DNA of 5,354 nucleotides, from IMG/VR virus record IMGVR_UViG_2740892006_000002. One strand, written 5' to 3'. The DNA comes from a virus (lineage: Duplodnaviria > Heunggongvirae > Uroviricota > Caudoviricetes). Shown here one piece after another: positions 2,930-4,499 of the stretch. A program made the position numbers and the translations under genes. Positions within the stretch are counted from its first letter, which is position 1, and every line of letters starts with the position of its first letter. The notes under the pieces are model-generated. The model was not told where the DNA came from. It saw only the letters and a program-made list of their open reading frames with translations, and ran no database searches.

Positions 2930-2955
2930 TTCCTGTAAACCGAGGTTTTAGATAA
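2930..2955. other. Gin/Pin/Cin/Hin-type inversion crossover site (pix/gix-like), right end of the invertible segment
   Basis: TTCCTGTAAACC-GA-GGTTTTAGATAA: 26 bp made of two imperfect 12-bp inverted half-sites around a central GA, closely matching the recalled gix/cix/pix consensus. It lies between the 5' end of the silent fiber cassette and the invertase start (3010), which is the canonical position. Confidence 0.7.
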
Positions 2956-3009
2956 TGGCGGTTTCTGGCCTGCATGGCATGATTTGTGCTTTTGGACGGG
3001 AGATTCAGC

Positions 3010-3252
3010 GTGCTGATTGGCTATGTAAGGGTATCAACAAATGACCAGAATACAGATCTGCAACGAAACGCTCTTGTTTGTGCAGGATATGAACAAATAT
3101 TTGAAGATAAATTAAGCGGAACAAGGACAGGCCGACCTGGATTAAAACGTGCTTTAAAGCGCCTTCAAAAAGGTGACGCACTGGTTGTCTGAAAACTGGA
3201 CTGACTGGTTCACTGTATGCGGCATCTTGTCGTGCTGGTGGTGGAAGCCTAG
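3010..3252 (+). pseudogene. pin: Serine DNA invertase (Pin/Gin/Hin family), truncated and decayed
   Basis: GTG start at 3010 with GGGAGA SD 6 nt upstream. The first 60 codons (VLIGYVRVSTNDQNTDLQRNALVCAGYEQIFEDKLSGTRTGRPGLKRALKRLQKGDALVV) match the invertase N-terminus, including the catalytic Ser in YVRVSTNDQ. TGA at 3190-3192 replaces the expected Trp of VVWKLDRLGRS, followed by in-frame stops at 3202-3204 and 3250-3252 and several substitutions (*KLD*LVHCMRHLVVLVVEA*). The whole C-terminal catalytic/HTH portion is missing; the frame runs into a tfa 3' end. Confidence 0.85.
3025..3100. promoter_or_regulatory. Candidate Fis-dependent recombinational enhancer retained inside the invertase 5' remnant
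   Basis: In Hin/Gin/Cin systems the enhancer lies within the first ~100 bp of the invertase coding sequence with two Fis sites roughly 48 bp apart. Two G-N13-C 15-mers with AT-rich centres occur here at 3031-3045 (GTATCAACAAATGAC) and 3080-3094 (GTGCAGGATATGAAC), centres 49 bp apart. Assigned by eye only. Confidence 0.3.
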
Positions 3253-3385
3253 AAAAAGTATCGGGTGTTACTGAACCGTGTTGATACATCAACTGCACCT
3301 GATATTGAGTGGCCTACGAACCCTGTCAGGGAGTAATCATTGGGATTATGCCGCAGCACGTCTTAAGCAAGAACGTGCTGCGGTT
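3244..3385 (+). repeat. Direct repeat copy A (tfa 3' end plus hairpin), fused in frame to the invertase remnant
   Basis: About 140 bp, roughly 90% identical to 4293-4436 at a constant 1049-bp offset. Encodes [29 protein letters not shown] (stop 3334-3336), then a perfect 11-bp-stem hairpin CCGCAGCACGT-(11 nt)-ACGTGCTGCGG at 3351-3383. Confidence 0.8.
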
Positions 3386-3399
3386 GGATGCTATTTTTT
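3351..3399 (+). terminator. Hairpin plus T-run downstream of the tfa-like 3' end (candidate intrinsic terminator)
   Basis: Perfect 11-bp stem at 3351-3361 / 3373-3383, then TTTTTT at 3394-3399. The T-run is about 10 nt from the stem and also encodes the last Lys codons of the minus-strand methyltransferase, so terminator function is uncertain. Confidence 0.3.
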
Positions 3400-4059
3400 C
3401 CCTGAAGCGGAAAACATTACTACAGTACCTTGAACCTTGGTTTTAACATTCTCGAAATGCTCTGAGAGTATATGTGTTAAGCCTTCTTCGGAATCTTTTG
3501 TGTTTGAAAAGATGCCTTTCTGATTGTAAATGCGCATCAGTTTTTGACCGAAGCTATTGTGCACAACGCCGTCACCAAGAATTGTGGCTCCGTATAGAGT
3601 TCCATCGTCAGTTAAGGCCTGCGCCGCATTGCGTATTACACAGCTTTTTGTAGATATATTTCCAGGCAGGCAGTGAAGAAGGTAAAACATGGAAATGGAA
3701 TCAAATTGACCATGTAACGCCGCGGGATAAGGTTCAAAAACATCATGGCTAATTTTATGTTTAATTTTTGATTCCCCAGCCCTTGTAGATGCCGCGTTCA
3801 GGCTAGCTTCGTTCAAATCCATTAAAGATATCAGACTACTCTCAGGTACGTGAGTAAGGTAAAACCCAGTTCCAACACCAATATCCAGATGGTTGTTACC
3901 TACATGTTCCAGAAAGTGTGGAAGAAGGTGTTCCTTTGTAGGACATCCCCATGCAAGCCGATTTGATACTCCCAAAACCCACCAGTCATAAAGCTTTAGG
4001 GTAAGTGGTGTGTAAATTTTAGCCCCATCATCTGTGTTTTTTTTCATTGATTTCACCAT
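3391..4059 (-). CDS. Class I SAM-dependent methyltransferase (prophage moron)
   Basis: 222-aa ORF with a Rossmann-fold motif I, HLDIGVGTGFY, followed by an acidic residue after the next strand (LISLMDLNE) and a later FDSISMFYLLHCLP segment. No DPPY/NPPY-type amino-MTase motif. An alternative start at the second ATG (4047-4045; MKKNTDD...) is preceded by a GGTGA SD-like sequence. Confidence 0.85.
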   Translation of the reverse strand: MVKSMKKNTDDGAKIYTPLTLKLYDWWVLGVSNRLAWGCPTKEHLLPHFLEHVGNNHLDIGVGTGFYLTHVPESSLISLMDLNEASLNAASTRAGESKIKHKISHDVFEPYPAALHGQFDSISMFYLLHCLPGNISTKSCVIRNAAQALTDDGTLYGATILGDGVVHNSFGQKLMRIYNQKGIFSNTKDSEEGLTHILSEHFENVKTKVQGTVVMFSASGKK

Positions 4060-4088
4060 GTTATAGTTTTATTTGTGAATTAAATCAA
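4060..4088 (-). promoter_or_regulatory. Candidate sigma70 promoter for the methyltransferase
   Basis: On the minus strand: TTGATT (4088-4083), a 17-nt spacer, then TATAAC (4065-4060). The -10 abuts the first ATG (4059-4057), which would imply transcription starting at or after that codon and translation from the second ATG. Judged by eye, weak. Confidence 0.25.
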
Positions 4089-4115
4089 TTATGGCGATGA
4101 ATTACAAGGGGTTAA

Positions 4116-4385
4116 ATGCTGCCGCAGCATAGCGATATTGAAATAGCCTGGTATGCTTCGATACAGCAGGAGCCGAATGGCTGGAAGACCGTCACCACAC
4201 AGTTCTACATCCAGGAATTCAGTGAGTATATTGCGCCACTGCAGGATGCTGTAGATCTGGAAATCGCAACGGAGGAAGAAAGATCGTTGCTGGAGGCATG
4301 GAATAAATATCGGGTATTGTTGAATCGTGTTGATACATCAACTGCACCTGATATTGAGTGGCCTGCAAATCCTGTCAGGGAGTAA
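4116..4385 (+). pseudogene. tfa: Tail fiber assembly protein, C-terminal fragment (lambda Tfa-like), N-terminal half missing
   Basis: The 89-aa ORF ends ...[54 protein letters not shown], closely resembling the C-terminus of lambda Tfa as I recall it. There is no conserved Tfa N-terminal region; an AAGGGG SD sits about 5 nt upstream of the ATG at 4116. The 3' part is repeat copy B. Confidence 0.7.
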
Positions 4386-4436
4386 TCATTGGGATTATGC
4401 CGCAGACACGTCGTATGCAGGAACGTGCTGCGGTTA
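4293..4436 (+). repeat. Direct repeat copy B (tfa 3' end plus hairpin)
   Basis: Matches 3244-3385 at a +1049 offset (+1050 after a 1-nt insertion in the hairpin arm). The W codon TGG at 4299-4301 corresponds to TAG at 3250-3252 in copy A. The hairpin here is imperfect (CCGCAGACACGT...ACGTGCTGCGG). Confidence 0.8.
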
Positions 4437-4499
4437 GTTTGTGAGCTTTCGATAGTGGTTGTTATTTTTGCCCTTATTTGTTCCGGAGGCCATGGTTCA

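Follow-up and report, generated by a model that had tools for sequence, protein, structure and literature searches.

The closest described counterpart of the gene considered here lies in DLP12, a cryptic prophage of Escherichia coli K-12, in which tfaD is followed by ybcY on the opposite strand, by tfaX, and then by appY and ompT. K-12 ybcY (b0562; locus L003, 6153-6807) is annotated as a pseudogene of a putative S-adenosylmethionine (SAM)-dependent methyltransferase, and the mentions of ybcY that we found in the literature are table entries only; searches for WP_000240999, for c0651 and for prophage methyltransferases near tfa or ompT likewise found nothing functional. We examined a 5,354-nucleotide stretch of viral DNA (Caudoviricetes; IMG/VR record IMGVR_UViG_2740892006_000002), referred to below as the window, which carries on its minus strand, at 3391..4047, a methyltransferase gene in the same cassette: tfa, the ybcY-like gene in antisense orientation, and a truncated tfa equivalent to tfaX. 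The gene is broken in DLP12 and intact in the window, and the window prophage differs in position, lying at ompW by trpA with the cassette beside a truncated pin gene. When DLP12 was aligned with window positions 3200-4460, nucleotide identity was 98-99% through the gene and its upstream spacer, over about 1.1 kb. K-12 ybcY is a pseudogene because 2 bp have been lost from a run of eight A residues immediately following the ATG of Met5 (4037..4044, minus strand; T8 on the plus strand) and because the start ATG itself has become ATT. Judged by alignment, gene order and membership of the YbcY (phrog_2132) family, the window gene is the intact ortholog of ybcY. Public annotation already covers the gene, its family and its place in a prophage, together with the K-12 name, and the locus is not a new kind of element. 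ymfD of the e14 prophage, considered first as the identity of the gene, was rejected when BLASTP showed no similarity.

Other described systems resemble the gene in part. The small-molecule methyltransferases BioC, UbiE/UbiG/Coq5, NodS, JHAMT, CysG/BelI, DhpI and RebM have its fold, size, SAM motifs and N-terminal helical lid in common, and such enzymes are its best structural and profile neighbors, yet they are only 12-21% identical to it, and the window gene belongs to none of these families. As a genetic element, it resembles the morons of lambda-type phages (lom, bor) and other conversion cargo, with which it shares location, orientation against the late genes, dispensability, and co-location with other cargo, such as ompT, a hydrolase gene or yciGFE-katN-like genes; its candidate promoter and terminator-like hairpin would add to the likeness. 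We conclude that the window gene almost certainly encodes an intact class I methyltransferase of the ybcY family and is autonomous prophage cargo that the phage can do without, and not part of a restriction-modification system. The acceptor that it methylates is probably a small molecule or a lipid.

An intact class I methyltransferase gene

An earlier note on this DNA had described a SAM-dependent methyltransferase with the motif LDIGVGTG at 3391-4059. We recovered an uninterrupted open reading frame of 222 codons at exactly these positions (3391..4059, minus strand), found the motif within it, and obtained matches above the curated cut-offs to all four of the Pfam models Methyltransf_12, _23, _25 and _11. 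The reading frame thus stands as described, but its start is probably placed too far upstream. The in-frame ATG at 4059 extends the product to 222 amino acids, while translation from Met5 (ATG at 4047..4045) would give 218. We consider Met5 the probable start because the alignment to the phrog_2132 profile begins at residue 5 of the longer frame, because most homologs have a length of 218 amino acids, equal to the length counted from Met5, and because a Shine-Dalgarno-like GGTGA (4057-4053, minus strand) is found 5 nt 5' of this codon; the first ATG is not preceded by such a sequence. The 218-residue protein covers all 218 positions of the phrog_2132 profile (E = 4.2e-157), a family labeled 'unknown function', and is named 'class I SAM-dependent methyltransferase' in RefSeq (WP_000240999.1).

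An alignment of 93 homologs (34-90% identity) was used both for structure prediction and for defining conserved residues. The AlphaFold2 model (predicted local distance difference test score 93.9, predicted template modeling score 0.90) shows one class I domain, a seven-stranded beta sheet with flanking helices, which has two helices at its N-terminus and a hairpin at its C-terminus. LDIGVGTG (residues 58-65 in the 222-residue numbering) has the form of the glycine-rich loop, motif I, of class I enzymes, and its glycines, G57, G59 and G61 in the 218-residue numbering, are 97-100% conserved across the 93 sequences. D77, within LMDLN at the end of the predicted strand 72-77, is invariant in the alignment and occupies the position expected of the acidic residue that contacts the SAM ribose. 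Strong conservation extends to Y12, Y20, D21, W33, C35, H53, S117, H125, C126, P128, G129, K134, G153, T155, N175, F180, N182 and D185. The family has a signature peculiar to it, YxP..L..YDxxVL..SN...WxCP, LLHCLPG and YNxKGIFxNxxD, and the window protein keeps all of its residues. By the usual architecture of class I enzymes, the signature residues would cluster at the acceptor site. SAM would then be bound through motif I and the invariant Asp that ends strand 2, and the conserved acceptor pocket would be formed by the N-terminal helical lid (Tyr12, Tyr20, Asp21, Trp33, Cys35), the His125-Cys126 loop after strand 4, and Asn175, Asn182 and Asp185.

The earlier note had also held that the gene lacks a DPPY/NPPY motif, has no nuclease beside it, and is unlikely to be half of a restriction-modification pair, and our searches bear this out. 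A regular-expression search of the protein found neither (D/N/S)PP(Y/F/W), the catalytic motif IV of DNA amino-methyltransferases, nor PCQ, the corresponding motif of C5 enzymes. The protein consists of a single 218-residue domain, with no target-recognition domain and no adjacent endonuclease. No nuclease or other defense component was present near the gene, whose neighbors are the truncated pin, tfa fragments, a DUF4376 remnant and Rha, and PADLOC gave no significant match to a defense system (best E = 0.009).

Placement of the family and its relatives

The earlier note had proposed structure prediction and a structural-neighbor search as the means of placing the protein. The predicted fold is that of a methyltransferase, and its neighbors are small-molecule and lipid methyltransferases. 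The top Foldseek match in the PDB was a bacterial phosphatidylethanolamine N-methyltransferase (8ys9; E = 8e-12, template modeling [TM] score 0.62-0.67), followed by JHAMT, NodS, phosphoethanolamine methyltransferases, CysG, SgvM and polyketide C-methyltransferase domains. No DNA methyltransferase was found among the top structural neighbors, and the viral structures in BFVD included nothing close to the predicted fold. When the family profile was compared with PDB sequences, matches were confined to the SAM-binding core (CysG at 5e-7, NodS, ToxA, JHAMT, UbiG), and this was the only part of 8ys9 to be matched as well (E = 1.5e-4). None of the NCBIfam models was reached, with scores far under the cut-offs; the commonest sub-threshold matches among the 93 family members were to BioC (63), CpaM (43), UbiE (38), NodS (29) and RquA (25). 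Because the profile matches other enzymes only in the SAM core and no NCBIfam model is reached, we assign the family, on these comparisons, to an uncharacterized branch among the small-molecule and lipid enzymes, one without a solved structure.

The family is large. An exhaustive HMMER search returned 1326 cluster representatives at E <= 1e-3, and a genome scan found at least 576 loci. Among the matches listed, identity is 100% in E. coli, Shigella and E. albertii and then falls to 67% or less; the distant loci listed lie in Enterobacter, Klebsiella, Salmonella, Yersinia, Erwinia, Pantoea, Pseudomonas, Xanthomonas, Dyella, Burkholderiaceae, Vibrio, Nostoc, myxobacteria and actinobacteria. At 45-67% identity, relatives occur as monocistronic genes on the chromosomes of many bacterial phyla, and fungal members exist. 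In Salmonella, Enterobacter, Yersinia and Aeromonas, the gene is solitary and occupies unrelated settings that are either chromosomal or flanked by insertion sequences (IS). With no member characterized and no structure solved in a family that spans many bacterial phyla and fungi, a biochemical function assigned to one protein would annotate well over 1000 protein clusters.

Two contexts of relatives are informative. In a metagenomic contig (L186, 1-6580), a true family member (P0254) is fused to a cytochrome P450; it is 36% identical to the window protein over 209 aligned residues of 218 and keeps all of the signature motifs. The fusion gene directly follows a polyketide synthase (PKS) gene encoding AT-ACP-TE and precedes a second P450 gene and a phosphopantetheinyl transferase gene, so that the cluster looks like a polyketide tailoring cassette, unlike the prophage gene, which stands alone. 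At a Xanthomonas locus (L043, 5201-6004), a glutathione S-transferase (GST) gene overlaps the start of the methyltransferase gene by 4 nt, which suggests translational coupling, and at another locus (L083, 969-1691) a GST gene lies directly upstream of a family member. The PKS/P450 fusion and the GST overlap both point to small-molecule chemistry.

Two further occurrences are recorded here as observations. An 84%-identical allele (L179, 3115-10353, and L180) is located on an IS-flanked island of E. coli together with genes for a tannase/feruloyl esterase, a TetR regulator, a catechol-type O-methyltransferase (Methyltransf_3) and an esterase, a content that may hint at the metabolism of phenolic compounds. 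A 4.3-kb contig labeled as a metagenome-assembled genome of Bacillus sp. (JBJEFM010000006.1, L016) carries a copy whose protein is 100% identical to that of E. coli; it is most likely a mis-binned or contaminating fragment of an E. coli prophage.

Prevalence, selection and dispensability

At a threshold of at least 80% of the gene at no less than 95% identity, the gene was present in 3799 of 5426 complete E. coli genomes (~70%), in up to four copies per genome, which places it among the most prevalent prophage cargo genes of the species. The full gene also occurs in 14 isolated phage genomes, including 2G7b, ev243, PhiR26_1, Turner and Kati. The region from the tail fiber genes to int is an accessory arm in lambda-type phages, and in 2G7b the gene is found there, between the tail fiber genes and hydrolase-ompT-int. 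The same cassette recurs at the end of another prophage, beside potB, in E. coli E24377A, and in an O157 prophage, where it adjoins ompT. In O157:H7 (NZ_CP038328.1; L184, 3665-5878), a set of four stress genes, encoding a general stress protein, two ferritin-like proteins and a Mn catalase (yciG/yciF/yciE/katN-like), has been inserted between tfa and the methyltransferase gene on the same strand, and the locus continues with IS66, an alpha/beta hydrolase gene and ompT. This spot is a hotspot for cargo.

The earlier note had named disruption of the reading frame in most homologous loci as an outcome that would speak against it. This is not what we observed, since the copies are nearly all intact. 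Among 88 E. coli-type copies, a sample whose viral loci had been preselected for high identity by taking the 80 best matches at the protein level, 87 are intact, and the lone exception is K-12; the right-hand tfa fragment is retained in all 88 and the left flank in 73. A 65-nt probe across the start codon and the A8 run, which gives a less biased sample, was found in 3248 E. coli records. Of these, 2868 (~88%) belong to two upper identity bands in which none of the rows sampled differs in length or, hence, has the K-12-type lesion. The remaining 380 records make up the 90-95% band, represented mostly by K-12-type strains; the 2-bp lesion of K-12 is present in three of the four rows sampled there. 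Phase variation through the A8 tract was considered and rejected, as tract length is constant in the rows sampled from the upper bands and the lowest band varies by the lesion known from K-12.

Low ratios of nonsynonymous to synonymous substitution (dN/dS) and mostly synonymous polymorphism indicate that the protein is under purifying selection. Values of dN/dS were 0.24, 0.18, 0.15 and 0.11 against relatives of 79-90% protein identity, whose genes are found on the remnant of a Citrobacter prophage, on a Salmonella plasmid that also carries ccdAB and kfrA, on an E. coli island flanked by IS, and near perC in Salmonella. Among E. coli alleles, after two codons affected by the K-12 artefact were left out, 15 polymorphic codons varied only synonymously and 6 changed the amino acid, 4 of the 6 being K/R or L/V exchanges.

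The gene is dispensable for phage growth: phage Ayreon (MF807953.1; L185, 2950-3060) lacks it, whereas 2G7b, ev243 and PhiR26_1 carry it. A clean 663-bp deletion in Ayreon joins the equivalent of window position 3426 to approximately 4090, so that no more than 36 nt at the 3' end of the gene are left. As this stretch codes for the C-terminus, a part that chromosomal homologs largely conserve, we read the junction as a deletion scar and not as an empty site.

The cassette and its expression

The earlier note had placed the gene antisense between remnants of tail fiber assembly genes, and both flanks agree with this. On the left, positions 3239..3385 (plus strand) hold the 3'-end remnant of such a gene with a hairpin, recognizable as a direct repeat of 4288-4435 (89-90% identity; families D1 and D3). 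On the right, 4116..4435 (plus strand) holds a 5'-truncated tail fiber assembly gene, the equivalent of K-12 tfaX, with a second copy of the hairpin at 4399-4434; within it, 4116-4385 aligns with positions 75-130 of the 131-position profile of the tail fiber assembly family Caudo_TAP, its C-terminal half (E = 6e-25), and shares 44% identity with the Tfa encoded at 1373-1900 in the window. RefSeq annotates both flanks as truncated tail fiber assembly genes.

A GC-rich hairpin with a 12-bp stem at 3350..3384 lies between the convergent tfa remnant and the stop codon of the methyltransferase gene. It folds well on both strands (-28.5 kcal/mol, z = -4.8 on the plus strand; -25.4 kcal/mol, z = -4.7 on the minus strand, relative to shuffled sequence) and on the plus strand is followed by a T run at 3394-3399 that extends into the stop codon. 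The hairpin is terminator-like for the tail fiber transcript and may mark the 3' end of the methyltransferase transcript; placed with its T run before the stop codon, it could therefore end the tail fiber transcript before this enters the gene in antisense.

For a promoter of the gene's own, as put forward in the earlier note, the picture is mixed. A consensus scan of the AT-rich, 68-bp divergent spacer (4048..4115, minus strand) found, besides the ribosome-binding site, three sigma-70-like candidates that overlap one another: TTGATT (4088-4083)-17-TATAAC (4065-4060), TTGTAA (4107-4102)-17-TTTAAT (4084-4079) and TTAACC (4115-4110)-16-CATAAT (4093-4088), all on the minus strand. Such hexamers are present in the 4060-4115 spacer, but shuffled sequence contains no fewer of them than the region scanned, and for this reason the sequence alone is no proof of a promoter. 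The spacer differs from that of K-12 at one base. In K-12, genomic SELEX (systematic evolution of ligands by exponential enrichment) located binding of the RpoD holoenzyme between ybcY and tfaX and assigned TTGATT-17-TATAAC to ybcY (PMC3946193), and both assigned hexamers are unchanged in the window at 4088-4060. A promoter dedicated to the methyltransferase is thus plausible, and the gene may be expressed in lysogens.

Together, these features suggest a self-contained, non-essential cassette, located in the arm between the tail fiber genes and the attachment site of lambdoid prophages and equipped with its own promoter region and terminator-like hairpin. The gene is oriented against the late operon of the phage, and if it is expressed, this would presumably not depend on lytic development. 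The gene may have been captured from the widespread chromosomal family, and since it now also moves on plasmids and IS-flanked islands, it may confer a portable benefit, for example through the modification or detoxification of a compound. Its acceptor would most likely be a small or lipid-like compound in the cytoplasm or inner membrane of the lysogen, and not DNA or a structural protein of the phage.

Alternative explanations

Taken as a whole, a cargo methyltransferase acting on a small molecule or lipid is the best explanation of the locus and a fairly probable one. Several observations weigh against it. The spacer between ybcY and tfaX in K-12 also bears an H-NS mark (PMC3946193), and the gene may accordingly be silent under usual conditions; the sole trace of expression that we found is a 2.7-fold change of a c0651/ybcY microarray probe in a K-12 experiment (PMC4778652). 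The clustering of all open reading frames within 3.5 kb at 80 loci of different species revealed no conserved operon partner, the recurrent neighbors being only of the generic SDR, LysR and MCP families, so that the hints from gene context are scattered. The intactness count comes in part from loci chosen for their similarity. Family members are, in addition, often basic (median isoelectric point [pI] 8.8), which is compatible with binding to RNA or membranes too. We had considered pI as an argument against a nucleic-acid substrate and dropped it in view of this median, the window protein having a pI of 6.9. An enzyme that modifies tRNA or rRNA of the host or phage in the lysogen is nonetheless unlikely: the matches that can be cited for it rank no higher than dozens of small-molecule enzymes, an RNA-binding extension is absent, a P450 is joined to one of the family members within a polyketide cluster and another member appears translationally coupled to a GST, the members are sporadic and carried on mobile elements and do not form a core gene, and the value of 6.9 for the window protein itself does not favor it. 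Quite improbable, in our estimation, is a PmtA-like phospholipid N-methyltransferase that would methylate phosphatidylethanolamine in the inner membrane of the lysogen and thereby alter the envelope. The top Foldseek match in the PDB, 8ys9, is the R-type PmtA of Rubellimicrobium thermophilum; it aligns over the full length, is of comparable size, and has an aromatic-rich, Tyr-containing N-terminal helix and a His after strand 4, and Y12, Y20 and H125 of the window protein loosely resemble its Tyr10/His117 arrangement; the residues described for that enzyme are the catalytic Tyr10, His117, Ser120 and His147 and Arg residues that bind the membrane (PMC11446283). K-12, the usual strain for lipidomics, would also have been a natural null for such an activity. 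The likeness to 8ys9 reaches a TM score of only 0.62-0.67 and an identity of 15-17%, however, and the PmtA family model NF045882 is not matched (15.7 bits against a cut-off of 390).

A DNA or protein substrate fares worse still. Phages often carry orphan DNA methyltransferases, the gene is located among tail fiber genes, and sub-threshold matches to PrmC and HemK occur in 10 and 4 of the 93 family members; an orphan DNA methyltransferase with an anti-restriction or epigenetic role, or a protein methyltransferase acting on tail fibers or a host protein, is nevertheless highly improbable given the missing (D/N/S)PP(Y/F/W) and PCQ motifs and target-recognition domain, the structural neighbors described above, the antisense orientation to the late operon, the presence of homologs in non-phage chromosomal, plasmid and fungal contexts without tail genes, and the absence of the gene from Ayreon. 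We think it equally hard to credit that the gene is a decaying hitch-hiker, functionless at present and kept by linkage to ompT or the tail fiber genes. That it is a pseudogene in K-12, that it lies among gene fragments at the ends of defective prophages, that H-NS is recorded at its K-12 promoter region and that its GC content is low (41%) would all fit such a history, but decay does not agree with dN/dS values of 0.11-0.24 and mostly synonymous polymorphism within the species, with 87 of 88 copies intact and some 88% of probe records free of the K-12 lesion, with maintenance of the cassette in several different prophages and in viable phages, or with the retention of every residue of the family signature.

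The reading that we prefer, a small-molecule or lipid methyltransferase carried as cargo, can be pushed further. The gene might be a widespread lysogenic-conversion gene, a tailoring-type enzyme with kin in polyketide clusters that was recruited by lambdoid prophages, plasmids and IS islands, although we regard this extended form as rather doubtful. If it were true, a toxic metabolite or antibiotic would be inactivated or modified, or a membrane lipid methylated, and the trait would belong to ~70% of E. coli strains and be absent from K-12 owing to the broken copy. The laboratory strain K-12 being a natural null mutant, any effect of the gene would be invisible in most work on E. coli physiology. 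The value of the finding is modest, as a target for functional genomics, the gene being already annotated in thousands of genomes.

Surroundings of the gene in the prophage

The window matches, at 100% identity, part of a lambdoid prophage that splits ompW, beside the trp operon, in E. coli ST131. From J onward, this prophage contains lom, into which ISEc12 has inserted; stf and tfa; tfa' and stf' in the opposite orientation, apparently an invertible tail fiber segment; the pin invertase gene, truncated after 68 codons; the 84-nt tfa 3' remnant; the methyltransferase gene, antisense; the 5'-truncated tfa; and a DUF4376 remnant, followed by Rha and Ash (antisense) and the split ompW.

The flanking tfa sequences gave several minor matches. 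The Rfam model IS009 (RF02111, a predicted E. coli small RNA) matches 4139-4342 (plus strand) with 112.5 bits against a gathering score of 117, and a second, partial match is found in the left repeat at 3214-3293 (plus strand; 43.5 bits); the hit may reflect a real RNA or a model built on the tfaX gene fragment. A weak match to CssrB lies at 3320-3382. RefSeq additionally lists a 45-residue 'hypothetical protein' (WP_001309429.1; 3309-3446, plus strand), which runs from the tfa remnant across the hairpin and antisense over the 3' end of the methyltransferase gene; it is probably an artefact of annotation.

A Gin/Pin-type crossover site, TTCCTGTAAACCGAGGTTTTAGATAA, is located at window positions 2930-2955 and adjoins the truncated pin gene (2986-3192), whose 68 codons encode only the Resolvase N-terminal domain. 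An inverted partner site with three mismatches lies ~130-145 nt 5' of the start of the window (L001, 11556-11575). Because paired inverted crossover sites accompany a truncated pin, the segment 1-2884, with its two alternative stf/tfa sets, looks like an invertible tail fiber switch that has been locked by loss of the invertase.

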